NCBI GenBank assembly: GCA_017499595.2
Contig: CM039003.1
Span: 62,001 to 126,000 of the forward strand
Origin: Psilocybe cubensis
Lineage: Eukaryota
Reading direction: 5' to 3'
Length of the DNA stretch: 64,000 nucleotides
Part shown: positions 10,604 to 33,782 of the stretch, one piece after another
Layout of the letters: each line of letters opens with the position of its first letter
How positions within the stretch are numbered: the first letter of the stretch is position 1
Position numbers and translations under genes: made by a program
The notes under the pieces: generated by a model
Seen by the model: only the letters and a program-made list of their open reading frames with translations
Databases searched by the model: none
Told to the model about the DNA's origin: nothing

Positions 10604-10789
10604 TGTAACGCGCGCCCTGAATATCCTAACATTTCAAATAGCATCGGCTGCCGCCGATGCCCTTATCATGCACAATTGTAGATAGGAGTAGGACAGTTCT
10701 TTTGTTTCGTACCTACTAGACACCAATATACGTTGGTCAGATTTAGTACGTGCGACTTGAGAATTCCAACCGTAAAGCGAGCCTTTACA
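10604..10789 (+). repeat. 5' LTR of element 1 (186 bp)
   Basis: TGTAACGCGC...GCCTTTACA; one mismatch seen versus the 3' LTR (T10677 vs C33670). Confidence 0.97.
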
Positions 10790-10876
10790 CTTTTTTAAAT
10801 CTACCATCTATATTGGCGATTAGCCAGAACCCCCAAACCGTTATCTTCACTACCCCTATTGCATCGTAACTGCGCG

Positions 10877-13774: not shown

Positions 13775-16168
13775 CTAACCGTGGATCATGGGCACAGTGC
13801 GAACCGAAAGCGCACAGAGGTAGAGGAAGTTGAAGATGCAGATAGACTTCGGGCAAACATAAACAGCCTACCTGAGGGGGATACAAGACTGCTTGTATCC
13901 GTGGATGAATACAAAGACCTTGGTAACAAGGAATCCAAACAGACTAAACAGCAACCCAGACCTCGGGATAATGAGCAAATCGCAAATAAGGAAGCAGACA
14001 AACCGCAGACAAAAATGACGGCGGAAAGACGCCAACCACAGAAAATTAATAAACAGAAATCAATTCAACCTGAGTATACGGGTTATGTCACTCACGACGG
14101 ACTATGGAGATGTGATTATCTCGATGATTCCATCATTGCAAATATAGACAGTGTAGAAAGTTACTGTCAGCCTACGTCATCTAAAGTGAAAACTGAGGAG
14201 TTAGTCACGGATGAAGACGATAAGATCATGATGGCCGAAACAGAGGCTGTTGATTGGACAAACCGTAAGAGATTTTGGGATAGGCCCACACCGCCACCTG
14301 AAATTGACTGGGTTTTTGACCCTCGGATGCCACAAGAGTGGAACGGTATGATGGAGTCGATGACCTCGAACTACTGGGCCAAACGATGGAGTCGGGTATC
14401 GACTACCCCTAGTGAGGTGTATAGACAACCCGAGCCATCCGAAATATCTCAACCGCACGTCATCCGGCTGGAGCCACCAGTGGTGCCAGTACAAATACAC
14501 TATGACGCATCTGAAATATCACTACAAAGTATACGTGAAGACCTCCAAAAACCAGTGAGATTAGCACGTATGGCAGCCGAACGCTACCCTGACAAGGGGA
14601 AGAAAAGGGAGGATGAATATAATAAGGATGATATACCTAAATTAAGACAGCAGTGGCACGACACTTACCAGGATGTAGTACAGGGAACTCGAAATGAACT
14701 CCCACCATTTCGTGAAGTCAATCACGAAATACACTTGATCGATGAATCAAAGAGATACACATATCATTTACCTAGATGCCCGTTGGCGTTACGCGGTGAA
14801 TTTTATAATAAGTTGAACCGCTACCTTGACGCCGGATGGTGGGAGGCAAGAGCTGCATCTCAAGCAGCACCACTAATGTGCATTCCTAAAAAAGATGGGA
14901 AGCTCAGAACTGTAGTCGATGCACGACAACGAAATGACAATACGATTAAGGACGTAACTCCACTCCCAGATCAGGAGATTATTCGTGAAGATGTCGCGCG
15001 GGCGAGATACAGGTCAAAAATTGACCTGGCTGATGCCTATGAACAAGTACGAGTGCGACCGGAAGATGTTTGGAAGACCGCATTCTCAACAATATCAGGG
15101 ACTTATGTGAGCAATGTGGTACAACAAGGAGATTGTAACGCACCCGCTACTTTTCAGCGGTTGATGACATGTATATTCCGAGACGCAATAGGAAGATTTC
15201 TACACGTCTACCTAGATGACATTTTTATATTCACCGACACAATTGAGGAGCACGAAAAAGCATTAAAATATGTTTTTGACAAACTGCGAAAAAACAAGCT
15301 ATACCTGAAATGGACCAAGTGCGAACTGTACGCAGAAAAAATAGACTGCTTGGGACATGTTATCGACGATGCGGGGATACACCCCGATGCTGACAAACTT
15401 GCTAGAATACGGGAGTGGAGAACACCCAGAAACTATAATGATATTCAGAGATTCGTGGGGCTGGTAAACTATGTTGGGGCATTCTTGCCGAACATTACCG
15501 CGTATACAGCCCCCTTGATGAACATGACACAGAATGGTGCACCGTTTTTCTGGCGGCCATTACACCAACGATGCTTCGACATGATAAAGAGAGTATGCTG
15601 TAAAACGCCGATTATACGGCCGATTAATCCTAAGGTTAACGAACCGATATGGGTGATTTGTGATGCCTCGAAGACAGGTGTTGGAGCCATGTATGGTCAG
15701 GGAACATCCTGGACAAAGTGCAGACCAGCGGGCTTCATGTCAAAGAAGTTTACTGATGCACAACAGCATTATGCAGTTCATGAGCTTGAGACGCTTGCCA
15801 TACTCGAGGCACTGATTAAATGGGAAGACAAATTAGTGGGCCAGAAGATACATATTATAACAGACCATAAAGCCCTTGAATTTTTCAAGACCCAGTCTAA
15901 TTTGTCCCACCGACAATGTAGGTGGATGGACTATATGGCGCGTTTTGACTTCGATATTACATATGTAAAAGGCGAATTTAACAAAGTTGCTGATTGTTTA
16001 TCGCGATATTATGAGAGTGACACGCCGTACGACGTACACAAAGTATACGATTACGTTCAGGCGGATGTGCGAATTGATCCCGACGGGGAAGACCTACCCA
16101 AAGAAAGGTCCCGTGAAGTCACTGAACTGCTCGTAGAAATACAAGCAATGCGTACTATTGAGCTACGT
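13775..16168 (+). CDS. pol: Pol segment 1 of element 1 (spacer, reverse transcriptase, RNase H), interrupted by element 2
   Basis: KIDLADAYEQ, QGDCNAPATFQ, VYLDD, ICDAS, ELETLAI, ITDHKAL, NKVADCLSR. Confidence 0.95.
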
Positions 16169-16769
16169 TGTAAGTTTTTCTTTTGATGTGTGCAAGAAAA
16201 CGGAGTTTCTTGAGTAAGGTGCAGACAAGTCGTCGTGCACGCAGGGTCAGATAGTGAGTACAGACGTGTATGGGCAAGTTTGGATTCGGACTGATTCTCT
16301 TCTATCTTGCGGCGGCTTCTTTACTTGCGTACTGCGATTTTAGATACAAATAACGCGATGACTTCGGAGCGGATACGATAATCCAAGCTCAACGACTGAG
16401 TACGAGTAGCTTTCGAGATTTCGAGTGAGTAAATTGACTGCCTCTATCTGGTTTACATAGCTTCTTTATATACTGTTTCTTTCTGTAAATTTTCTTTAAT
16501 AAAATTTTTCTTCCCATCCCGTCCTCGTTGGCTAAACCTCGTACCGTCCCGCTATCCGATGTGCTCCTACTTGCTCCTGCGTCTTCAGAGCATTTCTCGC
16601 GCCATCTCCTAAGTCCACTCCGCGTGACGCTTCCGGTGCCGAGCTTCCGCTGCCGCCATCCCGATCCTTGGCGTCTTGGCTTTGTTGGACTTAGCAAATT
16701 TACCGGTTCTGAGACTTGTTGTTCGTCATTCTGACACTTTCCGTGTCCACCCCGTCTCATGTCTCCACA
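16169..16769 (-). repeat. 3' LTR of element 2
   Basis: Direct repeat of 23691-24291 with no difference spotted by eye; polypurine tract GAGAGGGGG adjacent on the minus strand (16770-16778). Confidence 0.96.
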
Positions 16770-16827
16770 CCCCCTCTCGACTTTTAAATGTTGACGCCCT
16801 CGTCAACCACCCTATTTTCCCATTACC

Positions 16828-17736
16828 ATGTCCGCTCCAGTCTACCAACGAGATCACGTATTGCCGTCTACTCGTCGCACGACCGTGAAGCAGTTTCTGT
16901 CGCTCTTCGCCCCTGGATGGGTCGCTCAAATTCGTAAGGCGGTTGAGACCTTGGTCCCGAGCAATTTCGCCGGCCTTGAGGTCGAAGAGCGAGTGTTGAT
17001 CGCCCCCTCGGCTTCGGCCTTTGATGCACTGTTCCGTGAGGCATGCGCCTCCTTTGATCGGTATTCCTCGTATGTTGACACCTGCTGCCTCGACCTCCTT
17101 CGCTCCGTGCCCCCTATCACCGTGGTTGATATGCAGCAGTTGCTGGCGAACACCCAAAAGCTCCGTGAACGTTCCGAGGTCATCATCGAGCTTGGAGGCA
17201 TTCCTTTCCTGGAGGATCGAGACATCCGACTCATGTGTCTTTGTCTGGCCAAAGCTCGCGCAGGTGCTAATGCTCATGTCACCGCCTATGCCGCCGATGT
17301 GTTCTACGAGTTTCTTCAGCTTGCCACCAACGATCAGCGCCACAAGATTGAGGCGCACTATTATCGTTTTAATGACGATATCATCGACCTCCGCCGTGAA
17401 TTTGAGGAATCCCACCCTTTCGAGCTCACCGAGCGAACGCTCTCTCTTCTTCCGCGTATCCAGCGACTCCTTGACTCCCTTGGTACACCCCTCCCCGACG
17501 TTCCTGACACCGAGTCCCTCGAGACGCGCCTTCACCGATACGAGGAGATTCTTGGAGTCCTTGAGAGTCGCTTTCGTCTTGCAAAGGAACGTTACGACAG
17601 TGACGTGGCTGCTGGGTCTTCTCCCGAGCATCCTAGCGTTCATGCGCGACGGGGTTATTCTACCGAGACCGCTATAATGGTGGAGGATGTTGATTGGTGC
17701 GCAGATTTTCTGTTTATCAGATTTGTGACATGCTAA
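16828..17736 (+). CDS. Accessory ORF antisense to element 2 gag-pol, unknown function
   Basis: 302-codon ATG ORF with helical, charged, protein-like composition, lying between the pol end and the 3' LTR; possible 51-nt intron at 17697-17747. Confidence 0.65.
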   Translation: MSAPVYQRDHVLPSTRRTTVKQFLSLFAPGWVAQIRKAVETLVPSNFAGLEVEERVLIAPSASAFDALFREACASFDRYSSYVDTCCLDLLRSVPPITVVDMQQLLANTQKLRERSEVIIELGGIPFLEDRDIRLMCLCLAKARAGANAHVTAYAADVFYEFLQLATNDQRHKIEAHYYRFNDDIIDLRREFEESHPFELTERTLSLLPRIQRLLDSLGTPLPDVPDTESLETRLHRYEEILGVLESRFRLAKERYDSDVAAGSSPEHPSVHARRGYSTETAIMVEDVDWCADFLFIRFVTC

Positions 17737-17965
17737 CGAGACTGTAGATATGTTTTGAAGTATTTTTGAATGGTGTCGAACGGTTGTATCTTCTGTGTTT
17801 GTTATGGTGTAGATAGGTTTTTTCATGATTGTAAGTTGTAGTGAAAATTTAAATGTAAAAGGAAAAGAGGAGGAGAAAACTGAAATTACGTGCGTGTGTG
17901 TGAGATGAGAGCACCTAGATATTGTTTTGCTGGTGCGTTGGACCTTGTGCTCGCGCCCCGTCTGA

Positions 17966-20900
17966 TCATTGCTCCTCGTCGCCGTCTTCTTTGCCTTCCA
18001 TAGAGTCGAGAAAGGACTCGTCTTCTTCAATGAGCTTGGTGATAGGAATTGCGTGTTTGCTTCTGGGATAGTACGGAAACAGACGAAAGGCTGCGTATCG
18101 AAGGCGTGATAGAGTTCCATCCACTTCCGCCAGGATGTAGGATCCCATTTTTGTTCTTCGGACCACGACCATCGGTCCCATGTATCGGGGTTTTGTTTTG
18201 CTTCCCAGTTCCTTATCGTCTTTTGAGTTTCTCACCAAGACTAGTGCTCCAGGCTGGAAGTTAAAGTCAATCGGCGCTATTCTGTGTTCGCGTTCCTTAT
18301 TTTCGATAGCCTTCCATCGTGCTGTGACGATTTTGTCTTTTACCGTTTCCAGGTCGTCTTCCCTTTTCATGAGCATTTTGGCTCGCTGAGCAACTAAATC
18401 GGTTGTAGACATCTGGTCTCCTCCTGGTGCTAGGTAGGTGCACTCGGCTAAGTCAAATGGCAACAGGGGTTCTACACCGTGAGCTAAAAAGAATGGGGAA
18501 TACCCTGTGCTTTTCTGTATAGTCACTCGTTCTGCCCAAAATGCTGCAGGTGCTACTTCGGGCCATCGAGATTCAACCCCTTCCGCCGCTTTCATGATTG
18601 CTTCCCGTACGTCAAAGTGTCGACGTTCTATGATGCCTTGTGCTCGCGAGTTGTATGGTGAGATCTTGATATGGTGGATTCCATATTTGTCTGCCAGGTA
18701 TTCGGCCGCGGCTATGTACTGCGGTGCGTTGTCTGTGACCAGTTCCTCCAGTGCTCCCCATCTACATAAAACCTGTGTGAACAGAAATTCCCCTATTGTT
18801 CTCGCATTTTCGGCTTTGAGTTTTGCCCATTCGGGGTAGGAGGTCAGGCTACACCTCCCGTGCACAATATATCTGAAGCCTCCGGCTTTAGGCATAAGCA
18901 TAGTGTCAACGTACATTTTTCGGAAGAGCCCACGCGGCGTCGCCACTGTAGGCGGTATGCGAATCTTTGCGAGCTGACGTGTCTGACATTCGTGACAAGT
19001 GCGCAGGTACCACCTGACGTCGTCGTCCATGTGCGGCCACCAGAATCGTTCCAGCAGTCGGGTACGCACGGAGAAAAACCCCTTGTGGCCCAGGCCGTCG
19101 TGCGCCTGTCGCACGATATCCTGCCTTTTATCAATAGGTACCACAAGTTTGTGCCGCCCGTTGGCATCCTTTTTCCAGAGTTTATTGTCTTTCACAAAGA
19201 AATCAGACGCTCGGCGGATGAACCGCTTTTGTTCACCAGGATTCATGGATGATGCAAACGTCAGCGGGCTTCTGAGAAAAGATGCTATGATATCAAGTTC
19301 TTGGTCGCGTTTTTCAGCTTGTGTTGTTCTGGGAAAATTGTCCGACCACGCCAAGAGCGCCATGCCCCATACATCGTTGAGTTTATTACCGCTCGCGGTA
19401 CTTGGCAATATCTCGTTATTTGGTGAGGGCTTGGGGGGCAGATTGTAAGCGCCCATAGCGTTTATCGCTTCCACCGCAAATCCACAAGCCTCATCAATCC
19501 AGTCTTCCACGTCTTTGTCATCGTCGACCTCATTATCCCCTAAGCCACGCCTGGACAAACCGTCAGCCGCAGAGTGGTCTTTTCCGGGTACGTGCCGTAG
19601 TTCAAAGTCAAACAATTGAATACCCGCGATCCATCGATTCACAGCCGCATTAGGGACAATATCCGGGTTGTTGAGCATCCCCTTGATATACTTTGCATCC
19701 ACTTCGAGTACCAGCTTCTTCACACCGATAATGTAGACCCTTGCCTGCATAAGCGCCACGAATGCTCCAAATAGCTCAAGCTTGGCTTGTGAATATCGTT
19801 GTTCCCTGTCATTGAAGGTCCGCGATCCGTATCTGCATGGGTACAGCTTGCCGTCATCCCCCTTCTGCGAAATTATCCAGCCCACGCCTTTCCAGGATGA
19901 GTCCACGGCGAGAATAACTTCGTTTTCGGATGCGTAATCGATTGGCTTGATTGCTGTGCAGTTTTCGGCCAACATCTTCAAGGTATTCATTGCAAACAAC
20001 TGTTCCTCCTCGAAGACAAACTCACTATCTTTCTTTGTTAGCTCAACCAAGGGTTTTGCGTGCTTTGCAAAATCCTTTATAAACATTCGGATTGTTCCAA
20101 GTGTCCCCAGGAAGCCTCTCACGTCCGACACAGTTTTGCACACAGGCCAGTCACTTATTTTCTGCACCCTTGACTGCAGAGGTCGTCGGCCTTCGTAGGT
20201 GCACTCGTGACCCACAATCACCGCTGTAGGTGCGCAGAGTGTTGATTTCTTTCCCGAAAATGTGCCGCCTGCATGTCGCACTCTTTGTATAACCCTGTTG
20301 ACGTTTTGGAGATGCTCCCATACAAAGCGCCGGATGCCAGGGTTTTCGGGTATGGTTTCATATGATCCCAAGCCATCCTCATATCTCGTATTGGGCCCCT
20401 TCACAGGAATGTCGTCCACAAATGGTATGGTGACGTGCGGAATCTCATCCTGTAGTAAGAATGTAGTGTCGCCGTGTTGTATTTGCATTGAATTCGTATA
20501 ACCCATAGGTATACAGGTCAGTCTCATGGTTCCCAGGGGCGATTGAAACGTAGTGAGGTCTCTTGATTCCTTAGCTAGCTCCCTCTGATCAAATCCCACG
20601 AATAGGTCGAACATTCCGTAGCAGGCCTTTCCTCCAAACGACTCCGCATAGGGTTCTATCACCGGTGGGACCCCACTATCTTTAATGGTGACTGAGTTCA
20701 ACATTCTCAGATCATGGACTATTCTAATGGCGTTTTTGTCCTTCTTTGGGACCCAGAACCACGGAGACCGGTACGACGAGCTTGATGGTTCGATGACCCC
20801 TGATTCCAGTTTGTCTTTTAGAACCGCCACCACTTTGTCATAGATCCCTGGAGGGATTGGTATGTTTTTCTGCACCCAAGGTACGTGTTCCACTGTTGGT

Positions 20901-23386
20901 ATTACGACGGGTTCAAAGTAGTCACTCCTAAATTTCCCTTTCTCGGATTCATCCCATGCAAAGCCTGTTTCGTGCGCTTTAATCATATAGTGCACCAGTT
21001 TCTCCTCCTCTGGCCAGAGAAACCCATCCGGATTGACGTTCATAGCTTCCATTCTTTCCCGAGTGTATCGCGTTCCTGGCGCAAAATTGGGTGGGTGATG
21101 TGGTAGTGCGGGCATGCTAGATAGCGGGTCCTCGGGGATTCGTCGTGAAACCCGAAATTTTTCTGGCAGCGTTGTTGCTACTGGTTTAATGCGGTTTTCT
21201 ACCTTTTTATACGCGCATATTGCAACTTCGACAGCTTCTTGTAATATATCAGGCATATTGCCTTCCCATTTCACCTCCCACATGTCGTCGATATCGCTTT
21301 CTTCGTCTTGCGTGGGGCTATCGGTTTCGTCGCTGTCGCTTTCTTCATCATCTGTTGTCTCCACTTCTTCCAGTTCTGGTGGCTCGTCTTCGGGGCTATC
21401 TTGGTACCTGCAATGTTCTTCTACCCCAAAGAATCCCGTCAACACTTCATCGTCACTTTTAGACTCACCTCTCCTCGCATGAGTGGGCACCGTGATTTCC
21501 GCATTGGTGTTGGGGTCCTTCAACGTCAGGTGGGCTGATCCGTCTGCAAAGTGACTCATCACGGCCGTAGTGAGTGTGAGGAATGGTCTGCCCAGCAGCA
21601 TCTCGTATGGTGCGTTTTCCAGCACTTGCACTTGTAGATAGAAGTCGTAACCCCCTATGACTACCTTCATGTCATGTAGCAAACCATTCGTGTTGGCCGT
21701 TGTTGCATTAGCCGAGACCATCCTCATAAGATGATCTGATCGTAATGGTGCTCCCAGCTTCTCCCAGATGTCCTTCCTGACAGCAACAATCTGACATCCA
21801 TCGTCGAGTAGCGCTTCTGTAGTAATTTTTCCATCGAGCAGGAGGTCAATTCCCCGCAGATCTTCCACATGTTTAGCCACGATCAAACCATCTTTGCGGA
21901 CTGGAAGTGTTTTTCCACTCGCATGCAGGCCTTGGCTTGTTTTAACGTTAACATTGAAAGCCGCTCCCGTTGGCGTGACCCTTTTCGTTACGATTTTATC
22001 TTTGACTGCCTTTCGTATTTCAGGGGCAACTGCAAGGAGTTCCCTGGTGGTAAGAGTTACTGTAGCTTCCAGTCCTTTAGCCAACACAGCCTCCGTGATC
22101 GCCGTGTCTTCTATTGGTGATGAATATTTGTATTGTGGCCCCTGCTCTGGTTGCGAACTCGTGTTTGCTCCTTCGCTCGTCCTTTCCTTTTCCGCCATGC
22201 TTCTCGTGACAGGACCTGTGTGCTTCCCTCCCGAACTCACACCAAATTTTCGCCTTGTCTCGTCAATTTTCTTCTGCGTGCTCACAGCCAGGGTTTCCAG
22301 TAGTCGGAGTTCTTCCCTTTCCCTCTTTGTTGGTTCCCTTGTCTGTTCAATGGACTCCGTGTATATTTCTTCTATGTGCGCGTTTTGTGTTTCCTCGACC
22401 TGGACAACATTTGCCGAGACCGATGGCAGATTATTTGCACGCCAATTATCTATTTTCTCCTTCAAATTCTTCCCAGTGGACCCATAACTGTTTATTCTTG
22501 ACCCATCGGAAAGCGTGATTTGGTTGGAGCTGCTGTCGCGCTTACACCATCCGTTCTGCAGGTATTCTTGTAGTTTGAGGCACCTATTCATGTAGTGGGA
22601 TGGGTCGGAGCAGAACGTGCAGTCGTTTGACCTGGGCATTAGATGAGGCGGCGCCTGGCGGTTGAATCCTTCGTGCGTGCTTCCGTATCCTTGATTCATT
22701 CCTAATTTTTGCATTAACGCAAGCGTAATCCGATCCACCAGCTTGTCTTCGTCGATTCTGGGGCTAACCACTTCTTGTTTTACCGTTACCTTCTTAGGTT
22801 CTTCCACTGTTCCACCCCCACCGCCTTCTTTGGATAGCACAAATATAGCCGCATCGCATATTTCTTTCAACGTCCAGGGGTCGTCTGGGTGGTGTTGCGG
22901 ATTCTCGAGCCTGAGTTGTTCCCTTACTTCCCTCCGGAAATTGAGATGGAGGCCCTGGATGAAGTAGTTGCTTATTTCCCTGTCGGTGAGTCTTTGCTTT
23001 TTGACAAGAAAATTTGATATCTTTTTAAATTCTCTAAAGTATTCCCCGAATTTGTTTTGTGATTTCATACCCACGGTTGCGTTCTCTTCGGTGAGTATCT
23101 GTAGGTCGTGGACTGAGTATTTCCTGTCTCCAGCTGCTCCCGGGTACATTTCGACAACTTCTTTCTTAAATGTCGACCAATTTCCTTCCTGGGCTGATGG
23201 CAGGTCTTTCCACAAGTCATACTCTCCCGAAGGAATGTATCGCAATGCCCAGTCTATAATTGCTTGCTCATCGAGTTCGCAAGCCTCTCCCTGCCGGTGA
23301 ACTTCGTCTAGGAATCTAATGAGCGATTCTGGTTTGAGGTCAAATTTTGGTGCGGAGTGGTGACCGGGTGCTAGCATTTCGGGCAT
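17966..23386 (-). CDS. gag-pol: Gag-Pol polyprotein of element 2 (1806 aa, single ORF)
   Basis: CTFCSDPSHYMNRC knuckle, LLDDGCQ protease, FVDD RT, AVDSS RNase H, HDGLGH...CHEC and the integrase core; no chromodomain seen. Confidence 0.96.
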   Translation of the reverse strand: MPEMLAPGHHSAPKFDLKPESLIRFLDEVHRQGEACELDEQAIIDWALRYIPSGEYDLWKDLPSAQEGNWSTFKKEVVEMYPGAAGDRKYSVHDLQILTEENATVGMKSQNKFGEYFREFKKISNFLVKKQRLTDREISNYFIQGLHLNFRREVREQLRLENPQHHPDDPWTLKEICDAAIFVLSKEGGGGGTVEEPKKVTVKQEVVSPRIDEDKLVDRITLALMQKLGMNQGYGSTHEGFNRQAPPHLMPRSNDCTFCSDPSHYMNRCLKLQEYLQNGWCKRDSSSNQITLSDGSRINSYGSTGKNLKEKIDNWRANNLPSVSANVVQVEETQNAHIEEIYTESIEQTREPTKREREELRLLETLAVSTQKKIDETRRKFGVSSGGKHTGPVTRSMAEKERTSEGANTSSQPEQGPQYKYSSPIEDTAITEAVLAKGLEATVTLTTRELLAVAPEIRKAVKDKIVTKRVTPTGAAFNVNVKTSQGLHASGKTLPVRKDGLIVAKHVEDLRGIDLLLDGKITTEALLDDGCQIVAVRKDIWEKLGAPLRSDHLMRMVSANATTANTNGLLHDMKVVIGGYDFYLQVQVLENAPYEMLLGRPFLTLTTAVMSHFADGSAHLTLKDPNTNAEITVPTHARRGESKSDDEVLTGFFGVEEHCRYQDSPEDEPPELEEVETTDDEESDSDETDSPTQDEESDIDDMWEVKWEGNMPDILQEAVEVAICAYKKVENRIKPVATTLPEKFRVSRRIPEDPLSSMPALPHHPPNFAPGTRYTRERMEAMNVNPDGFLWPEEEKLVHYMIKAHETGFAWDESEKGKFRSDYFEPVVIPTVEHVPWVQKNIPIPPGIYDKVVAVLKDKLESGVIEPSSSSYRSPWFWVPKKDKNAIRIVHDLRMLNSVTIKDSGVPPVIEPYAESFGGKACYGMFDLFVGFDQRELAKESRDLTTFQSPLGTMRLTCIPMGYTNSMQIQHGDTTFLLQDEIPHVTIPFVDDIPVKGPNTRYEDGLGSYETIPENPGIRRFVWEHLQNVNRVIQRVRHAGGTFSGKKSTLCAPTAVIVGHECTYEGRRPLQSRVQKISDWPVCKTVSDVRGFLGTLGTIRMFIKDFAKHAKPLVELTKKDSEFVFEEEQLFAMNTLKMLAENCTAIKPIDYASENEVILAVDSSWKGVGWIISQKGDDGKLYPCRYGSRTFNDREQRYSQAKLELFGAFVALMQARVYIIGVKKLVLEVDAKYIKGMLNNPDIVPNAAVNRWIAGIQLFDFELRHVPGKDHSAADGLSRRGLGDNEVDDDKDVEDWIDEACGFAVEAINAMGAYNLPPKPSPNNEILPSTASGNKLNDVWGMALLAWSDNFPRTTQAEKRDQELDIIASFLRSPLTFASSMNPGEQKRFIRRASDFFVKDNKLWKKDANGRHKLVVPIDKRQDIVRQAHDGLGHKGFFSVRTRLLERFWWPHMDDDVRWYLRTCHECQTRQLAKIRIPPTVATPRGLFRKMYVDTMLMPKAGGFRYIVHGRCSLTSYPEWAKLKAENARTIGEFLFTQVLCRWGALEELVTDNAPQYIAAAEYLADKYGIHHIKISPYNSRAQGIIERRHFDVREAIMKAAEGVESRWPEVAPAAFWAERVTIQKSTGYSPFFLAHGVEPLLPFDLAECTYLAPGGDQMSTTDLVAQRAKMLMKREDDLETVKDKIVTARWKAIENKEREHRIAPIDFNFQPGALVLVRNSKDDKELGSKTKPRYMGPMVVVRRTKMGSYILAEVDGTLSRLRYAAFRLFPYYPRSKHAIPITKLIEEDESFLDSMEGKEDGDEEQ

Positions 23387-23670
23387 CGTTTTTCGTGGTG
23401 TTTGTTTTGCGCTATTTGAGTTCTGACTCTGATTATTGGTTCGCGATGTGGCTCGAGTAATTCTTCGGTTGCTGTTACTGTTGGTTACTATACTCCAGTC
23501 GACGGGTACAAAACGTGGCGGCGTGTATGATGAATCTGACGAGCTTGAGTTGTCTGTGTCTGAGTCTGTAGTCTCCGAGCCGAAAAATTCGTTGCACGAT
23601 CTGTAGTCCGAAATTCTTGATGCTGAGTTATCCAGTTGGCCTTAGTGTGTCTGTGCTTTCACTGGTCTGA

Positions 23671-23688
23671 CCCTCGCGGTGGGCTCCA
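23671..23688 (-). promoter_or_regulatory. tRNA primer-binding site of element 2
   Basis: Minus-strand TGGAGCCCACCGCGAGGG starts 2 nt after the 5' LTR. It is complementary to a tRNA ending ...GGUGGGCUCCA; tRNA-Thr is a guess. Confidence 0.8.
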
Positions 23689-23690
23689 GT

Positions 23691-24291
23691 TGTAAGTTTT
23701 TCTTTTGATGTGTGCAAGAAAACGGAGTTTCTTGAGTAAGGTGCAGACAAGTCGTCGTGCACGCAGGGTCAGATAGTGAGTACAGACGTGTATGGGCAAG
23801 TTTGGATTCGGACTGATTCTCTTCTATCTTGCGGCGGCTTCTTTACTTGCGTACTGCGATTTTAGATACAAATAACGCGATGACTTCGGAGCGGATACGA
23901 TAATCCAAGCTCAACGACTGAGTACGAGTAGCTTTCGAGATTTCGAGTGAGTAAATTGACTGCCTCTATCTGGTTTACATAGCTTCTTTATATACTGTTT
24001 CTTTCTGTAAATTTTCTTTAATAAAATTTTTCTTCCCATCCCGTCCTCGTTGGCTAAACCTCGTACCGTCCCGCTATCCGATGTGCTCCTACTTGCTCCT
24101 GCGTCTTCAGAGCATTTCTCGCGCCATCTCCTAAGTCCACTCCGCGTGACGCTTCCGGTGCCGAGCTTCCGCTGCCGCCATCCCGATCCTTGGCGTCTTG
24201 GCTTTGTTGGACTTAGCAAATTTACCGGTTCTGAGACTTGTTGTTCGTCATTCTGACACTTTCCGTGTCCACCCCGTCTCATGTCTCCACA
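23691..24291 (-). repeat. 5' LTR of element 2
   Basis: TG...CA termini; direct repeat of 16169-16769. Confidence 0.96.
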
Positions 24292-24295
24292 ACGT

Positions 24296-25027
24296 CGCAG
24301 CCAGCGGCTGCGCGAACGGCAGGAAGAGCGTGATGTTGAGGCACGGCTCCTCAAGGAAGGGGGGGGAGAGCCTGTTGTTCAGGACCACAAATCAAATAGT
24401 AAAAATATAACATTAGAAGAATCTATCCATCGGGATGGAACCAATGAGGAGTTACCGATCAGTACAACAGACGACTTTATGGACAATATACGCACCGGGT
24501 ACAATCAGGACAAGATGTTTTCTGAAGTACTGAACCAGCCGGAACGCTTCAATCGCTTCTCGATAAGCGATGGTATAATATGGTATAGTGCACCCGGGGA
24601 AGAAAAGGTTATTGGAGTACCTCGAGTACGTGAACTAATCACTAACCTGGTGCAGGAAGCACATAAGTGTGTCGGGCACTTTGCTACCCAAAAAACGCTG
24701 AGTTACTTGCGGCGATGGTACTGGTGGCCCCATATGGCAAAGGACGTGGAATCCTTTTGCAAGACCTGCGAAGCGTGTCAACGAGCAAAAGTTATAAATA
24801 ATAAACCAGCGGGAAAACTTCACAGTTTACCCATACCCACTAAACCCTGGGACTCAATAGGGATGGACTTTATAGGTCCATTCCCCGAGGTCAGAGGGTA
24901 TAACTATGTCTGGGTGATCATATGCCACATGACGAGTATGGTACATTTAATACCTGTTAACACAAAGATGACAGCTAATCAATTATCATGGGTGTACATG
25001 AGAGAAATTGTTCGATTACATGGCTTA
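24296..25027 (+). CDS. pol: Pol segment 2 of element 1 (integrase zinc-binding domain and start of core)
   Basis: AHKCVGH...CKTCEAC, PWDSIGMDF, EIVRLHGL; in frame with segments 1 and 3 once the insertions are removed. Confidence 0.93.
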
Positions 25028-25126
25028 CTTGTTTTAGTAGGCCACCGCGGAGCGTGGCATGACAAGTCTTTACAATTCAGCGTCACGCTTTGTAATAATA
25101 TAATATATATATAATATAATATAAAT

Positions 25127-26101
25127 ATGTCCAACTTTGACGTGGATATCGGTGCAATGGACGAAGTGATATTCAGACTCCAAGGCATAGTTAGCGACAA
25201 GATGCTACCACCAATGGCAAAGCCTGCTTCGTACGTCCACTCCATTGAGGTGAATTAATTACAAATGAGGACTGTTACAGCCGCGACAGAACGGTCAAGC
25301 AACAACCATATTTACGTACCGCCATTGCTATCACGGGACTCGGAGACATTGTGTTCAATAAGGTGATGGAAAAGCTAGAAGAAGTTTTCCTCCATTTTGC
25401 AAACAATTTTCCCGCGGACAGCGTCAGCGGCTATGACCCAGTTCTTCACAAAGACATGGGTTTCAATGTTTTCCATGCGCATAGCCAATATTTCACGAAG
25501 GTATCCGCATATCAAGACAAATCTGACAACATAGGTTTTCATCCCCTGGTCGACCCTGATAACGTGTTGGCGTCCATGGTAGGGGACAGTTTCATCCACG
25601 CAATCGATAACAAGGTACAGTTTCTTCGTCGGGAGATACTTCCTGACGGAACAGCCAGGTATGTTTAGAAAATACCAACAACACATCACAACCAAACTAA
25701 TATCATGTTTTTACAGATATTATTCTTATAATCCTGCCTCCATACAAATTGGAGACATTGTCGAGATCAGTGTTGCCTTTGTCGCATTTCCTGCCCAAGG
25801 AAACAAGTACAAATTTGTTGTTGCTCTTTGCGGAATACTTGTCTTGGACCAGGAGGCAAGAAAGGTAAGCAATGTTACATTGAACAGTCTCATAGCCATT
25901 CATAACTTCCAACAGAAAGCTGATATTCTCAGAATGCGGTCGCGCTATACTCCAGCAAAAAGACAGGTTGCTGTTTTGTGTAGGACAAAGAGGCAGCTGT
26001 ACAAAGGTCAGATTGACATTGAAGACACGCAACAGAGGATGGCATGTATGCGCTTAAATGAGGACACAGTCCACAATAGCAATACTATGTCCCAAGATTA
26101 A
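25127..26101 (+). CDS. Cargo gene A, 4 exons, hypothetical protein with OB-fold-like C-terminal pattern
   Basis: Introns ~25231-25289, 25659-25716 and 25865-25915 splice in frame; motifs VDPDNVL, DNKVQF, IQIGDIVEISVAFVAF...YKFVVALCGILVLD. Confidence 0.75.
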
Positions 26102-26246
26102 TACATATGTACATAGAAAGACAAGGATATTATAAATGTGCTGAACGAACAATCAATCCATTTGCGTGAACATTGTAAATAACAAGGAATAATTTGTCAA
26201 GTCATTTTCATGACAGAAATTATCTGAAGGTGTTAGTTGGCACCCC

Positions 26247-26426
26247 ATGGGAGAATCCTGCGTACACTGTATGCAGAATATTCCCACACTTGGCTGAATA
26301 TCGGCGAGGAAGTCCGTGGGAGAATTCTGCGTACACTGTACGCAGAATATTCCCACACTCGGCTGAATATCGGGAGAGGTTGACCGTGGGAATATTCTGC
26401 GTACACTGTACGCAGGATATTCCCAC
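26247..26426. repeat. Three tandem ~41-bp palindromes at ~70-bp period
   Basis: GTGGGAATATTCTGCGTACA-C-TGTACGCAG(A/G)ATATTCCCAC variants at 26247, 26316 and 26386 with similar linkers. Confidence 0.9.
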
Positions 26427-26507
26427 GCTCATCCGCAAGTCAAACTTACAAATTAAGACAAAAAGAATGAGGACGAGAACACAAGTTTATTTCGAACAAA
26501 AATTTGA

Positions 26508-29478
26508 CTAAGGATGGAAGAAATTACAAATATCCATTCCACAAGAGGCTTTGTGGTTGAGGGCGATGCAACCAAAAAAATCTGCCTTTCTGGATAGCAA
26601 ATACAAAACAGTTGCATGTACACGGTCATCTTTTTGCCTACATTACAGGAATTAAATTGACAAATACTAAAACTAAAGAGCACACACCTTATACCCCTTT
26701 CCCAGGATTTGATAGCTTTTTTGACACGCTTGTGTAATTGGTAAACATCTGCCGCTGTGTAGTGAAAATCTAATGCGATACCGCTGATGCGACGGACACC
26801 AAAATGCAAACAATCAAATTCATTGAGCAACAATACCCACGAATTGGCTTCAACAAAGGAAGTCTGATTTGCTTTGGGTAAAAGAGGCAAAGAATAAACC
26901 CAACAATGCCTGTCGCCAACCCGTCTAATCCCAGGAGAGAACAACTCTGGATAAGGATCGTAATCCAGCACAACGAGAACATGACCACGAGATGAACTAT
27001 ACCCAACATTTACGTTGTCCCTGATAGACTGTATCCTGCTTTGGATATGGCGGTCCATTTTCAAAGTTTGCGATGGAATGGAAAGAACAAATTTCAAGCC
27101 ACGGGAATGATATTTTGCAAGAAATTTTTGCGCGCGCTTGAGGTCGGCAGAAGGTTGCAACAGAGAGACTTGATGTCCAAAGGTAGCATTTGGATACAAG
27201 CTGTACACCTTCTCAAAGGTAACAAAATTCATGACGCCGGCTGTAGTAGAACAAAATTGAAGTTAACATTGTTTTGACACATGACATTAGGGACATACTG
27301 CTATGATACCCCAAAATGCACTCTACCACCGATTGACAAGTCGTAATCAGTTGGACAAAAGAACCTTGGCACCATAGGTTAACGACCACTCCAGTGGTAT
27401 TGTAATGTCGATGAAGAGGATGTTTCTGAAGGACGATTTTTTCCATTTTCAAAATTTTTTCCGCTGTGGTGTTGTCCGGATATTTGGGATGCGGCATGAT
27501 AGTAAATCCAATGGACATCATCCAGGAAAGAACGGGAAGAGCATATCTGTGCTCGACATACATGTCCATGTCACCCGGAATCCATATATTAGCACGATTG
27601 ATTACGAAACTTTATGTAAGTAAAGCGAGTTCTTTTATCCCCACAACCCACTGTACAAAAATATGTCCTTGCCAATTGTCCCCATCAGTAAATCATTGAT
27701 GCCATCAAAATTGCGTGATTAATACCGGTTTTTTACTTAACCGGTATGCTTGACTTAATAATTGGTTACTATCATAGAATTTCTGTTAGTTTTTGTTCCT
27801 ACCAAGGGGATATGGAAATTAAAATACTAGATATTAGCTAGGTAGATAGGTTAGCTGCCATATGGTAGAAAACAAAATTAGATACCATTACATTATGACT
27901 TTTTAATTGCAAGTTAAACATTTTGACACAGATAATCATCGCTCATAACCAAAAATTTTATAATAATGATCTTATTCAACTGATTTAAGGCCATTAATTA
28001 GTCACAATCAATTACATACCAACTGTTTTGCATGCTTTATACACCTCTAACGGCAAGTAGAGGTAAATAGAATGCTTTATTGTTATCAAAAAAAATTTAG
28101 CATGAATGACTAGCAGACTATGGTGGCATAGAATAAAGAATAATAAACATTATGTATCTAGCTATTATCTTTAATGCCACTTCAAATAACTTGTCATATT
28201 AAACTTGTTGTGCTGTTCATACTGGCCATGAATTAATAAGCAGACTGTGGGAATAACTTGCATATAGTGTATGCAAGTTATTCTCACGGTTGCCGCACTT
28301 TGCATTGAGCAACTTGAACTTCTCTGGTAATTCCTGATATATTACTGAGATGCATTGCATATACTTTAGGTAAAATACAAGTATTTTTGGCAATAATAAT
28401 TATTTTCAGTCCTAGTTTAGATGATCTTATTATATTTTACTTGCTGTGGTGTTTGTACTGGCCATGAATTAATAAGCAGGTCATGGGAATATCCTGCGCA
28501 CACTGTACGCAGGATATTCCCACGGTTACTACACTCAATTTGCATTGAGCACTGGCCACTTTGGTCAAGAGATGGTCATTTTGAATAATGTTTTCCATGC
28601 ATTGAATGTATTTTGGGGAAGAAATAATGCACTAACACTTGCAAATTATGCTTGAAATATGTTTCCACACAGCCAATTGTGTTCACAGCAACATCAAACT
28701 ATGCCAAAAAGAAATATGCGCACCAAACAAATGTTTTTGCACACAATATTGTTTCACTCTTGATGCACTTTTCAAAAATAAGAAAATTATATTTATGGGA
28801 AATATGTCCCCACTTGGGCAGCCATACACATGAGCATTCTTCCATCAGTTTTCCATACGGGATTCTCCCAGCAGATCTGGAATTCTTCAATATTTAGCAG
28901 GTATGAAAATTATAATAGACAAGTTCTTCCTTACAATTAGGCCTTATAACCTGTGCAGCTATTTTTTGTGTCTGACACAACTAAGCTTGTAGTAGACCTA
29001 AGTCATAGTAATTAATCATAACCTTGCCCAGTATCTGGCTGTGCATTCAGAACATATTAATATATATTAACTATGTTATATAAATCTAGATTAAAAAATA
29101 TTTTATACAATTGTGAGATGTAAAGTCTTGTCATGCCACGCTTTGCGTTGGACCACTAAAACAAGTAAAATGCAAAACGGTGGAACCTGAAATAACCAGG
29201 CCAGTCTTGAACTGGAGAAGACGAAACAGCAAATGTTCATTGGGTTTGAAGATAGGAGCAAATAAATTTTTGGGACGGAAGGCGCGGCGCATATAGCCCG
29301 AAACGCGGTCGTTTAGCTCCTTGCAAGTCCAAAAGAAACGGTAGAGGGTTTTCAGATCCATCTGATCCATGTACACATCGTCCATGGGAGGCGGAAAGAC
29401 TCTAAAAAATAAGTAATAACCAAATGAGATAAAACAGTGAACATACTGTTGGAAACGGGGGGATAACGCGGAAGCCAT
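26508..29478 (-). pseudogene. Cargo gene B: F-box-like N-terminus plus nucleotidyltransferase-like motif, disrupted by element 4
   Basis: MDLKTLYRFFWTCKEL; TGLVISGSTVLHF|INRANIWIPGDMDMYV is restored in frame after removing 27602-29165; QLITT...ILGYHS, MNFVT...YSLYP; GT-AG introns. Confidence 0.75.
27602..29165 (+). mobile_element. Non-coding element 4, same terminal family as element 3, opposite orientation
   Basis: About 110 bp at the 5' end matches the reverse complement of 30040-30148, and about 47 bp at the 3' end matches the reverse complement of 25028-25074. No TSD; target GA|TAA; carries the same palindromes at 28247 and 28483. Confidence 0.85.
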
Positions 29479-30148
29479 GGGTAAAACAGTGCGGAGAAAA
29501 GTGCATTGTCTATACTACGTCAATAAATATATTAACCATAAGCCGATAGACGCCCGACGTAGGGGAAGAACAAATTGGTATGCGTGAGAAACGATCATGA
29601 ATCAGAAAATCAAATTCAAATAGTACAGAATGCCCAGAACCCAAGAATGCGTAATTATTTCTATTTGAACTCTGATTGATGAAGCTACCGATATCAAGGA
29701 ACGTGTGTGCCTGCACAGTTCTATTTCCAACCTTTCAGACCCATAGTTCAAAGTGTGCATTTGTTCCATCTCTAAGTATTAGTACAATATATAAGCACGT
29801 TGGCTAGACGGTTCCACATGGTTTTAAAAATTAAACAACAACGCAAAAAAGTGAATTGAGTAGGACTATTGTTGTTGGGTATAATTAATTTTATGGAAAC
29901 GCACATTCACATTGCGATCAAAACAAATCAAAAACAACCTTTAAAGTAACAATGGTAAAAAGAAGTCGTAGAATGAATTGGAAAGGGGTTGCTTAGGGGG
30001 TCCGGTGACCGCTTAAGGAAAATACCGATAGCGGTAACAACATTGATCGCATCAATAATATTTTGATGGGGACAATTGGCGAGGACATTTTTGCTCGCTG
30101 GATTGTGGGGATAAAAGAACTCATCTTTACTTACGTAAAGACTCGTAA

Positions 30149-31066
30149 CCTTCATCAATTGTAAGCGATCGCGACTCTAAATTCACGTCTCAGTGGTGGC
30201 GCGAGCTTCACAAGCTATTAGGAGCAAAGTTGTTGATGTCCACCTCGTTTCATCCTCAAACGGATGGCCAAACTGAACGAGTAAACTGCAGCGTGGGACA
30301 GATACTACGCGCGATCATACGACCTGATCAGAAAGATTGGATTGAAAAGCTAGACATGACAGAATTTGCTATCAATGCAAGTATATCAGATACAACTGGA
30401 TACGCACCGTTTGAACTCAACGGTGGATATATGCCATCAATGTTGAGGGAAATTCGTGCTAATGACTTTGTATCAAAAGGGATACGTGCTTTTGCAGAAG
30501 CAGCACTGTACAATCTAGCCGAAGCTCATGATGCAATTATTGAGTCCAGAGTCATTCAAACAAAAATTGCTAACCGTAAACGGAGTGATGAGGCCGAGTT
30601 AAAAAAGGGATCATTAGTGTACCTATCCACTAAGAATCTCAACTTGCCCAAAAACCGTGCACGGAAACTGTGCCCCAAGTTTATTGGACCCTATAAAATT
30701 CTAGAATGTAGACCCGAGTCGTCAACATATACACTGGAATTACCCACGGCACTTACAATGCGTCGTATACATCCAACCTTCCATGTGTCATTACTAAAAC
30801 CATACTATGCATCGAGTGACGCATTGTTTCCCAATCGCGCACAACCTGAGCCATATGACTTTGGGGCGCCAGATGATCACGAATGGTTTGTCGATGAGAT
30901 TCTAGGGCATCGATGGGTCAATAAATCGCTCGAATTTGAAGTCCGATGGTCCTTAGGTGACACTACCTGGGAACCACTCACAGTATGTAAAGATTTGGAG
31001 GCTTTAGACAGATACTTACAGTTAATGGGCGTTAAGCGCCCTTCATCATTACCCAAGCGGCATTAA
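30149..31066 (+). CDS. pol: Pol segment 3 of element 1 (integrase core end, GPY motif, chromodomain)
   Basis: IVSDRD, HPQTDGQTERVN, PKFIGPY, IHPTFHVSLLK, EWFVDEILGHR...FEVRWSLGDTTWEP. Confidence 0.95.
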   Translation, partial: PSSIVSDRDSKFTSQWWRELHKLLGAKLLMSTSFHPQTDGQTERVNCSVGQILRAIIRPDQKDWIEKLDMTEFAINASISDTTGYAPFELNGGYMPSMLREIRANDFVSKGIRAFAEAALYNLAEAHDAIIESRVIQTKIANRKRSDEAELKKGSLVYLSTKNLNLPKNRARKLCPKFIGPYKILECRPESSTYTLELPTALTMRRIHPTFHVSLLKPYYASSDALFPNRAQPEPYDFGAPDDHEWFVDEILGHRWVNKSLEFEVRWSLGDTTWEPLTVCKDLEALDRYLQLMGVKRPSSLPKRH

Positions 31067-31300
31067 TGTTTGCTTGAATGTGGTGCCTGGCAATAGTTAA
31101 TATTGCAGTGATGAGATGGGAGCTTGGCGACACAGTAATTGCCTTGTTTGGAATAACTCATGTCGGGGCTCTAAATTGGGAAACTCAGGCGCCTCCATCA
31201 ATAAACAAACCTACCAAGGGGATTGAGGTGAAATTTCACCTGCACCCGTTATCTTTGATCCATCTACTCTACCATCGATTAATTTATATTGACACTCATC

Positions 31301-33553
31301 ATGCAATCGCACTTCCTTCGAGGACGACCGCAATATCACAGCAATAGAGGACATCTTGGTAGTTCTCGTGGCAACTATCACCCCGGATTGAGAGGGGGCG
31401 CACGAACGACGTACACACCGCCGTGGGCTAATAAGGGTACACCAACCTTAATACCCGGGAGGACCCCAGCTGGGGGGCCGCAGTCGCAGAATCTTAATAA
31501 TCACCCAGACGCAGGTGTGCATCACATAAATAACCTGCCAGTGCAGGACCAGAACAATAACACAGACAACATAGCATTGCCTACAGGTCAAGCAACCGTC
31601 ATCAGCGAACATTACAAGGAGTACGCTGCGACCATACGAGACTCGCTCGTCCACTATGGCATACAGGAGGGCCTGGCCGATGCAATCATAACCGAGCAAA
31701 TGTTTCTCCTTGCTACAGAACTCCTATATCGACTTCAAAACTTGGAAGCGGAGAATAAGAGACTTAACAATAATCTGGTGGCATATGGACGCATAACCAA
31801 GAGAGGAGCTACTGAAGGCATCGAGGAAAGTGATAATCGGCCCCTGAAGAAAGCAACGACAAGCGCAAATCATAGCGCTGTCACTATTAACAACATTCCC
31901 GGATCCACATTACGCGAACCGGAGATTTGTGAGCAGGTGCCAGACATGGTGTCAGGAATAACTATCCCTGGACCGCGACACCCCGCGCCAAAGCTCAAAC
32001 GCGACCCGTCGAGGGACCACCCCAATCCCATAGGGTATCGCACAGAAGATGAAGACTCAGACGATGGAGATGAAGCACCAGGGCCAGATGAGTTGTTGAA
32101 GCGTCAAGCCAACCGGCAGCTCGACTTTGACATGTACTCCGGCCGCATAGACAATGTGTGGGGAGTGGTCTTACATCCTCAACTGTCCCCACAGCGCCAT
32201 AACGCCCTGCGCAACACTCTACCACGCCATACATGGTACTCCAACCGCAGCAACTCTGTTTTCACCGGAAATACCGCGGTGGCCGCCATGCAGTGGGAAC
32301 AAACTCACGATAACGCATATAATCCATACAAGAATCCCCTGTACGCCGTAGCGCCTCGAGGAGTACCCAGAAATCCTCTGGAAGTCAAAGGCCTTATTCA
32401 AATCACGCAGGACGAGACGTACGAATCATGGGTACGAATCGAAGCCTATGTGTTATTGCGCACCTTACAGAATGCTGCCGCCATGAGTGTACCCCAAGTT
32501 CACGACCGGGCAATGCAGCATCTGGATAAGATGCCAATGGAGGATTTCACTCCGAACGTCAAAGAGGAGGACTGGAACGAAATATTGTTACCGCACGACT
32601 TTGACAGACTCCGTAACCGATACAGTGCTCACAAAAACAACCAGGGCATGGGTGTCCCCCTACCCTCGCGAGAACAATCTCTCAACGTCGACGATCTCGC
32701 GCTGTTTGTTTTGATGCACGCGAGACTGGGAAGTGTATCCCCGTTTCATGGGGTAGCGGTAAAGTTGTCGTTGGAAGTCGATCGTCGTTCGACCTTTGGA
32801 CAAGGGCTAGTGCGAATGATTGGACCCGTGGACAAAGCAGCACGACCTACCTTCACCAAACTGTTCGCTGCATTGGTTTCGCACGCCCATCGGTATCGGG
32901 AGGCTATTGATGTATATAACAATCAGCACCCGGATAGCCCATTCCACCCACAGGACGGTCCATTATATTCATTTACGAGGTCAACGCTCGGCCTAGAGGA
33001 AATCAAAAACCTCGGCGTCGAGCATGTTGTGGAAGTGTTGATTAGAAACCGCATCCCGGTGGCGTGGATTGACCACGCCTACCCGTTTGGGTACCATTAC
33101 TTGAACGCACGCATTACTCAGCCTATCCCCAACTCACATCCCCTCGCTGTGTATGACGACGAAAGACTGCGACGCCTTGATATGTTCGGCGTACCCCCTG
33201 CCATCCCCGAATGGGATGGGTGGAGACAACCGTCCGATGACGACCGACTCCGACTTTATGTTATTATGAGCCTCGAGGAGAAGGCAAATCCCAATACCCC
33301 AGGATTCAACCATTACACGTGGTTGCGCATTGGCGAACCACTGACTCAGAGATTTCTGGCTTTCCGCGATCAATCGACTATTAACACTCAGGCCACTGAG
33401 GCGCCTACAGACATGGCTTCGACAGCCATGATGCGCGATGACGACGACGAGATGGCCGATGCTCAGGAGGAGGAATCGGCTCAACGAATGGACGAGGACG
33501 TCCCGACTGAGGGAATTGCGCGACTAACGCTTAAGAAGGTTAACTCAATCTAA
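31301..33553 (+). CDS. Extra ORF3 of element 1 (about 750 aa), unknown function
   Basis: Uninterrupted sense ORF between the pol stop and the PPT/3' LTR; RG-rich N-terminus, short coiled-coil, acidic tail; no obvious signal peptide or TM segment. Confidence 0.85.
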   Translation: MQSHFLRGRPQYHSNRGHLGSSRGNYHPGLRGGARTTYTPPWANKGTPTLIPGRTPAGGPQSQNLNNHPDAGVHHINNLPVQDQNNNTDNIALPTGQATVISEHYKEYAATIRDSLVHYGIQEGLADAIITEQMFLLATELLYRLQNLEAENKRLNNNLVAYGRITKRGATEGIEESDNRPLKKATTSANHSAVTINNIPGSTLREPEICEQVPDMVSGITIPGPRHPAPKLKRDPSRDHPNPIGYRTEDEDSDDGDEAPGPDELLKRQANRQLDFDMYSGRIDNVWGVVLHPQLSPQRHNALRNTLPRHTWYSNRSNSVFTGNTAVAAMQWEQTHDNAYNPYKNPLYAVAPRGVPRNPLEVKGLIQITQDETYESWVRIEAYVLLRTLQNAAAMSVPQVHDRAMQHLDKMPMEDFTPNVKEEDWNEILLPHDFDRLRNRYSAHKNNQGMGVPLPSREQSLNVDDLALFVLMHARLGSVSPFHGVAVKLSLEVDRRSTFGQGLVRMIGPVDKAARPTFTKLFAALVSHAHRYREAIDVYNNQHPDSPFHPQDGPLYSFTRSTLGLEEIKNLGVEHVVEVLIRNRIPVAWIDHAYPFGYHYLNARITQPIPNSHPLAVYDDERLRRLDMFGVPPAIPEWDGWRQPSDDDRLRLYVIMSLEEKANPNTPGFNHYTWLRIGEPLTQRFLAFRDQSTINTQATEAPTDMASTAMMRDDDDEMADAQEEESAQRMDEDVPTEGIARLTLKKVNSI

Positions 33554-33596
33554 ACTAACACTGTTTAAGATCAGTAAATGATCTCAAGGGGGGGTG

Positions 33597-33782
33597 TGTA
33601 ACGCGCGCCCTGAATATCCTAACATTTCAAATAGCATCGGCTGCCGCCGATGCCCTTATCATGCACAATCGTAGATAGGAGTAGGACAGTTCTTTTGTTT
33701 CGTACCTACTAGACACCAATATACGTTGGTCAGATTTAGTACGTGCGACTTGAGAATTCCAACCGTAAAGCGAGCCTTTACA
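33597..33782 (+). repeat. 3' LTR of element 1
   Basis: Repeat of 10604-10789, preceded by the purine tract AAGGGGGGG. Confidence 0.97.

Follow-up and report, generated by a model that had tools for sequence, protein, structure and literature searches.

What moved a 5121-bp insert into the integrase gene of a long terminal repeat (LTR) retrotransposon, and by what route, is the question raised by a locus of the mushroom Psilocybe cubensis. The locus lies in a stretch of 64,000 nucleotides (assembly GCA_017499595.2, contig CM039003.1, positions 62,001 to 126,000 of the forward strand), referred to here as the window, and all coordinates below are counted within it. The insert occupies 25028..30148 and reads on the minus strand from TTACG to CTAAAACAAG. 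It is a composite: a second, 1564-bp member of the same family lies inside it at 27602..29165 on the plus strand, inverted with respect to its carrier and non-coding, the longest piece of open reading frame (ORF) in it having no Pfam match. In this study, we examine the boundaries, ends, target sites, gene content and abundance of the two inserts. The evidence makes it likely that the outer insert is a non-autonomous, gene-carrying rolling-circle transposon of the Helitron2/HLE2 type, and that it is a rolling-circle element in the general sense is more probable still.

The integrase frame of the host retrotransposon is broken at HGL|PSS, where it reads ...RLHGL up to 25027 and resumes as PSSIVSDRD at 30149. 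The left half (24257..25027, plus strand) holds the zinc-binding domain (Pfam Integrase_H2C2) and the right half (30149..31066, plus strand) the Tf2-1 SH3 domain (Pfam). The region 24300-31100 was compared, at 85% likeness, with public sequencing runs, of which X1, X6 and X7 were contig sets and X14 was raw reads. One X6 contig (record 9, 3525 nt), which bears a different organism label and has 12 other letters in the flanks, covers 24300-25026 and continues with 30148-31100, skipping exactly 5121 bp with a 2-nt ambiguity at the junction. The inner site was recovered empty as well: 39 X14 reads with 28 different starts join 27601 to 29166 and skip exactly 1564 bp, with 1 nt of ambiguity. This joint was absent from the contigs of X1, X6 and X7, and contigs drop rare forms. 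Consistently, the annotated protein P0003 (384 aa) is continuous over the inner site, with residues 1-89 encoded by 29478-29167 and residues 90-191 by 27602-27297, and removal of the inner element restores the frame as ...STVLHF|INRAN. Neither empty site has a target site duplication. The two inserts are clearly related, their 5' ends aligning by BLASTN over 108 columns at 83% (E 4.5e-23) and their 3' ends over 47 nt at 87% (E 2.8e-10), and both begin with TTACG and end with CTAAAACAAG. The flanks are GG|..|TAAG for the outer element and GA|..|TAAA for the inner one; no further copy of either terminus was found within the 64-kb window. A sequence-only reading of this DNA had proposed the split integrase, an inner insert of opposite orientation with homologous ends, the lack of target duplication, and the return of open frames upon removal of either insert, and all of these are borne out by the alignments and the empty sites.

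The empty sites also bear on the choice of target and, with it, on the class of enzyme. Both empty sites contain one T, and the filled sites show a T at each junction, so that the insert can be written either as TTACG...CAAG placed at R|T or as TACG...CAAGT placed at RT|N. The base 3' of the element is a T in every readable case, namely the outer element, the inner element, an X7 contig and a joint between 25028 and 28787; in addition, the match of 424 X14 reads begins at 25027 instead of 25028, a further sign of a constant T after the 3' end. The sequence-only reading had taken the target to be N|TAA. This does not hold as a rule, because the two bases past the T are AA, AA, TG and TA at the four sites, AA in only two of them. 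Ahead of the 5' end, the outer, inner, 30147->29377, X7 and X6 junctions show G, A, A, G and G, a purine in five of five, which is a small sample.

Tc1/mariner and PIF/Harbinger elements, which are moved by DDE transposases, duplicate a TA or TWA target and have symmetric terminal inverted repeats. The filled sites here can be read as T-TA-CG...CAAG-TA-A, with TA near both ends, which speaks for a cut-and-paste element of this kind. A duplication of TA or of TTA/TAA would, however, make the empty site 1-3 nt longer than observed, and the observed one leaves the integrase frame open and agrees with the X6 contig; moreover, 32 nt lie beyond the 3' repeat and are nonetheless part of the insert. 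Both empty sites thus rule out a TA/TWA duplication, and a DDE element is an extremely remote reading of the locus.

The same junctions speak to enzymes other than the RepHel transposase, which is an HUH nuclease fused to a Pif1-like helicase. Crypton elements encode a recombinase and cross over at a short sequence common to junction and target, and IS200/IS605-like elements, which use a Y1 HUH enzyme, insert 3' of a fixed tetra- or pentanucleotide. A Crypton or another tyrosine recombinase was rejected on two grounds, the shared sequence being only 1-2 nt, too short for site-specific recombination, and no recombinase domain being detected by Pfam. An IS200/IS605-like element was rejected as well, since the 5' flanks end AAGG, TTGA, ACGA, CATG and TATG at the five junctions and hold no conserved tetranucleotide. 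The broader proposal, that one of these enzymes or one of an unknown kind moved an insert whose ends merely resemble Helitron2, has in its favor that the end structure used for classification amounts to about 60 nt, seen in two copies that have diverged. We consider it improbable, as each end feature tested fits the Helitron2 definition.

Canonical Helitron1 elements have 5' TC and 3' CTRR termini and a 3' hairpin only, with no terminal inverted repeat. The insert is not of this kind, as its ends are TTACG and CAAG rather than TC and CTRR and as it has both a 5' hairpin and an inverted repeat. The published definition of Helitron2 places a 5' repeat at a distance of 0-2 bp from the 5' end and its inverted copy 20-30 bp short of the 3' end, upstream of a hairpin (PMC3627910), together with a 5' hairpin that uses the repeat and a 5' T (PMC3627910, Bao and Jurka 2013). 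The same arrangement is described for HLE2 (HELIANO, PMC11417382) and for HINE/DINE-1 (PMC4067079). As applied in this study, the definition asked for a repeat of 8-15 bp, its 5' copy lying 0-2 bp inside the 5' end and its 3' copy some 20-50 bp inside the 3' end.

In the outer element, the first 14 nt (30135..30148, minus strand) are complementary at 12 of 14 positions to 25060..25073, that is, to nt 46-33 from the 3' end, with 32 nt lying outside this subterminal copy on the same strand. When the last 80 nt were shuffled 20000 times, a match of this quality arose only 10 times. One of the mismatches departs from the family majority: position 25064 is A in the window and G in 728 of 760 X14 reads, and the majority G raises the repeat to 13/14. 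Part of the 5' repeat is used by a hairpin with a 7-bp stem and a 4-nt loop at 30124..30141 (minus strand, element nt 8-25; -4.7 kcal/mol, z -1.85). On the other side, a GC-rich hairpin (25041..25058, minus strand) follows the 3' repeat with one unpaired base between them, at a position conserved in the inner copy, and is itself followed by the tail CTACTAAAACAAG (25028..25040, minus strand), of which the last 11 nt are identical in both copies. The inner element repeats this layout on the plus strand, with a 5' repeat at 27602-27615, a 5' hairpin with a 6-bp stem at 27610-27625 (element nt 9-24), a 3' repeat at 29120-29133 and a GC-rich 3' hairpin at 29136-29151. The 5' hairpins thus stand at matching positions in both copies, and the 3' hairpins have one bulge each and begin 1-2 nt past the 3' repeat. 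One pair of the repeat is compensating, being T-A in the outer and A-T in the inner copy. The ends accordingly show the asymmetric repeat, the 5' hairpin formed with it, the 3' hairpin after it, the 5' T and the absence of a target duplication that characterize Helitron2/HLE2, and the architecture agrees with the published definition (PMC3627910, PMC11417382), as the Helitron2/Helentron-like ends of the sequence-only reading would have it.

The target nevertheless leaves room for another Helitron lineage, Helitron1-related or proto-Helentron-like, that would have acquired its end-to-subend inverted repeat independently. The purine|T target (A|T at two of the five 5' junctions, G|T at three) resembles the A|T of Helitron1 and proto-Helentron more than it does T|T; a proto-Helentron is reported with a 5' TT (PMC4067079), and for HELPO2 of Pleurotus a CTTG end and insertion at A|T are described (PMC4289320). 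Against this stand the lack of both a 5' TC and a 3' CTRR in the element, and the statement that a 5' hairpin and an inverted repeat are absent from Helitron1 (PMC3627910). Furthermore, FoHeli1 and FoHeli2, which belong to the Helitron2 group, likewise insert beside a single ambiguous T, with the same boundary ambiguity and a TNAT|A target (PMC5148889). An independent origin of the ends is therefore unlikely, and a Helitron2/HLE2-type element is preferred.

The element carries two genes. Gene A (25127..26101, plus strand) encodes about 271 aa in four exons, appears intact, and was delineated by tblastn with the protein P0005, which it matches at 97-98% in the long exons. It is uncharacterized, and it matches 11 protein clusters with 33 member sequences, all named from Psilocybe cubensis. 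Gene B is interrupted by the inner element. Its 5' part (29166..29478, minus strand), with the start codon and one intron, runs up to ...STVLHF and corresponds to residues 1-89 of P0003, and the exons after the insertion lie at 26527..27601 (minus strand). In this copy, gene B also has a 1-nt deletion at 26573 relative to most copies, 514 of 581 reads carrying one more A behind that position. When uninterrupted, the gene falls within a fungal family of very large size (1022 representative clusters at E up to 0.001, and 355 with E no higher than 1e-10), which gives gene B the look of a host family member that was captured. A label of "F-box-like" for gene B was considered and not established, being sub-threshold in two of seven relatives (E 0.018 and 0.039). 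Three tandem units of 69-70 bp, each with a palindrome of about 40 nt, lie at 26245..26443 (strand unspecified) in the outer element, and two units of related palindromes at 28245-28304 and 28481-28540 in the inner one. The number of tandem units varies among copies, a joint 26257->26327 being present in 15 reads.

The element has no transposase gene. Neither the seven ORF pieces taken from the element nor the two carried proteins at full length gave a Rep or helicase domain with Pfam; the only hits were sub-threshold, to TPR_2 in the ORF pieces (E 0.069) and to CDC48_N among P0005, P0010 and P0003 (E 0.06). Among the 16 Pfam-scanned ORFs of the 21 in the window that have at least 200 aa, there was likewise no Rep or helicase, and the only mobile-element domains were those of two retrotransposons. 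As the element encodes no Rep/helicase it must be moved in trans, a claim made earlier and upheld here. That gene A is instead a new kind of transposition protein, and the element autonomous, is a proposal that draws on its appearing intact here and being present in every copy class seen, on the lack of a Pfam family, and on a protein atlas that returned uncharacterized Basidiomycota clusters only. Nothing, however, suggests a nuclease or DNA-binding fold, and the AlphaFold model, built on an 11-sequence alignment, is unusable (mean predicted local distance difference test score, pLDDT, 39.7). Gene A is also antisense to the element, and the 1564-bp inner member moved without it. We regard an autonomous element as very improbable.

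The insert at this locus is one of many. Depth rose from 10.7-13.9 in the flank bins to about 180-650 in the element bins of X1, from 21.5-22.5 to about 360-1160 in X6, and from about 12-21 to about 540-1070 in X14 (both directions summed), a summed depth that is no copy number and that is taken here as "many copies" only. In X7, element depth was 1-9, and flank depth was 0 in six of seven bins and 1.5 in the first. At the element ends, X14 has 424 loose-end reads at 25027 (agreement 0.38) and 261 at 30148 (agreement 0.39), which means many different flanks. Because its depth is many times that of its flanks and its flanks are many, the element is a multi-copy mobile family, and its termini are repeated beyond this locus. 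Members have also inserted into one another, as indicated by the X14 joints 30147->29377 (11 reads) and 25028<->28787 (opposite strands, 9 reads). Genes A and B are matched by protein clusters that hold 18 and 20 near-identical members. The composite has probably multiplied to tens of copies.

It had been supposed that the nested copies record two recent events at this locus. The depth argues otherwise. X14 depth is alike, about 700, over the outer-only and inner parts, with only 39 reads lacking the inner element and no excess of inner-only copies visible; in addition, the 20-member protein cluster of gene B, a truncated form, begins inside the inner element. Taken together, these observations indicate that the inner element probably inserted once and that the composite then spread, making the composite the amplified unit.

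Two further repeats touch the family. A second subfamily has no more than the 5'-terminal 356 nt (29793-30148) in common with the element; loose ends occur at 29793 in X1, X6 and X14, with 464 loose-end reads in X14, and depth is raised over that bin. This subfamily is a candidate for the autonomous partner, or may be a further non-autonomous form. Within the inner element, a 35-nt stretch (28792-28826) also occurs in a different abundant repeat: ahead of 28792, 714 X14 reads depart from the element with a single common sequence (agreement 0.94), past 28826, 642 reads do so with many different ones (agreement 0.38), opposite-strand joints occur at 28826, and one X1 contig continues from there with letters like those of a telomere repeat.

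Several lines of evidence point to recent activity of the family. The host retrotransposon has LTRs at 10604-10789 and 33597-33782 that agree at 185 of 186 sites, the single difference noted in the sequence-only reading, and the insertion is absent from the X6 contig that bears another organism label. Among the 40 positions listed (a further 196 stand outside this list), 30 within the element have a window letter that differs from the majority in all runs. Of these 30 differences, 25 are isolated ones with A or T in the window against G or C in the majority, and 14 of the 25 lie in CpG. Such a G-to-A and C-to-T pattern, often at CpG, fits the decay of a methylated repeat. The earlier view of a young and recently active element is in keeping with these data.

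From these observations we infer a course of events, an enzyme that would drive it and an intermediate that would be single-stranded or circular. A RepHel encoded elsewhere would nick at the 5' T that adjoins the 5' repeat and hairpin. One strand would then be peeled off until a 3' signal, consisting of the subterminal repeat copy, the GC hairpin and the CTAAAACAAG tail, brought transfer to a stop, and it would be pasted between a purine and a T, probably via a circle, with no duplication of the target. The 1564-bp relative probably inserted a single time into an ancestral copy's gene B, oriented the opposite way, and the 5.1-kb composite would then have multiplied as a whole. The inversion of the inner copy would keep its 3' stop signal off the transferred strand, and the composite could therefore move as a unit.

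Some observations weigh against a Helitron2/HLE2-type element. The inner inverted repeat, although in the same place as the outer one, matches at 10 of 14 positions and is by itself within chance (1735 of 20000 shuffles), and the hairpins are short, with energies not beyond those of shuffled sequence (z -1.85, 0.35, -0.78 and 0.65). Thus, the hairpins and asymmetric repeat of the sequence-only reading stand as regards the positions shared by both copies and the significance of the outer repeat, and not as regards the folding energies or the inner repeat taken alone. Both empty sites have a single T, with CAAG as the 3' end, rather than the TT usual for HLE2; insertion at T|T is usual, not universal, for Helitron2/HLE2. 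A RepHel partner with these termini was not found, in an analysis that made no genome-wide search and in which two metagenome scans returned nothing related. The exact 3' terminal pattern had no match in the metagenome scan, and the single match to the 5' pattern, of 23 letters (L001, 521-543), was dismissed as chance, since it lies in a GC-rich metagenome contig that has long open coding sequence and nothing more of the element. Finally, a head-to-tail junction was not among the joints listed (15 of 32). A more radical proposal would take the family as a separate rolling-circle lineage of mushrooms, having Helitron2-type ends, a purine|T target like Helitron1, whole intron-bearing genes and an unusual partner, or, in its boldest form, no RepHel at all, with gene A taking part. 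We hold this to be distinctly unlikely, and a non-autonomous Helitron2/HLE2-type element continues to be the best account of the locus.

The surroundings of the insert are themselves rich in retroelements. The host is a Ty3/Gypsy LTR retrotransposon (10604..33782, plus strand) in which Pfam recognizes zinc knuckle, protease, reverse transcriptase and RNase H domains. Nested within it, between RNase H and integrase, is a second LTR retrotransposon on the minus strand (16167-24291), with a single open polyprotein frame of 1891 aa and 603-bp LTRs (16167-16769 and 23689-24291) that are identical, which makes it a very young insertion. Between the integrase and the 3' LTR of the host lies an open frame of 756 aa (31283-33553) that has no Pfam family and may be an extra gene of the host retroelement. 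Elsewhere in the window, the segment 60150-62490 is GC-rich (0.56), has a strong AT skew, and carries long open frames overlapping on both strands; three of these (60190-61839, 61840-62487 and 60246-61391) were scanned and have no Pfam family.

Helitron2-type elements are already known in fungi, including the Agaricales (PMC5148889, PMC12730594), and the known picture of Helitrons is unchanged by these results. For Psilocybe, no description of Helitrons was found in the literature, in which isolated co-mentions exist. Provided here are the exact boundaries, the empty sites and the end structure of an abundant, apparently young family of Helitron2 type in a mushroom lineage. Two complete genes copied to tens of places matter when these genomes are annotated and their gene families counted, the composite illustrates how a nested relative that lies inverted can travel with its carrier, and the single-T empty sites bear on the position of the nick in Helitron2-type elements.

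Comparison with known systems places the family among several partial likenesses. The HELPO1 elements of Pleurotus ostreatus (helpo1.3) are likewise from the Agaricales and hold "captured" genes of unknown function, their non-autonomous copies outnumber the long ones, and they often lie in retrotransposon-rich regions, as here (PMC4289320). In contrast, HELPO elements have T[C/G]...CTRR or CTTG ends and insert at A|T, and no terminal inverted repeat is reported for them (PMC4289320). HINE/DINE-1 elements, which are non-autonomous Helentrons, resemble the family in their 13-bp subterminal inverted repeats with a short inverted repeat beside the 5' one, their 3' stem-loop, central repeats, lack of target modification and flanking T, and in copies that outnumber the partner (PMC4067079). 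They are, however, short non-coding animal elements with T-rich targets and variable numbers of terminal T, whereas the present element carries two whole genes and adjoins one fixed T.

Further fungal counterparts are FoHeli1 and FoHeli2 of Fusarium oxysporum, with relatives in Chaetomium, which have hairpins at both ends and a 12-nt repeat with its 3' copy 38-51 nt from the end (PMC5148889). Their first base is also ambiguous beside one T, the target being TNAT|A there and TGAT|A for the inner copy under the alternative boundary, and nested and composite Helitron2 elements are described in Fusarium in the same work (PMC5148889). They differ in being autonomous elements of Ascomycota that have TCAG at the start and ATTTT at the end, whereas the family described here is non-autonomous, basidiomycete and unrelated in its termini. 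For Helitron2/HLE2 as a whole, families are on record in the Agaricales (PMC12730594), and a DUF6570 domain is named as an HLE2 marker (PMC11417382). The present family departs from this group in its single T after a purine instead of TT, and in the termini TTACG and CTAAAACAAG, which do not occur in the excerpted descriptions (PMC3627910, PMC11417382). Besides the hairpins, the 5' T and the lack of a target duplication, it shares with Helitron2/HLE2 the asymmetric repeat, here of 14 nt with 0 nt outside its 5' copy and 32 nt outside its 3' copy, and the existence of non-autonomous derivatives.

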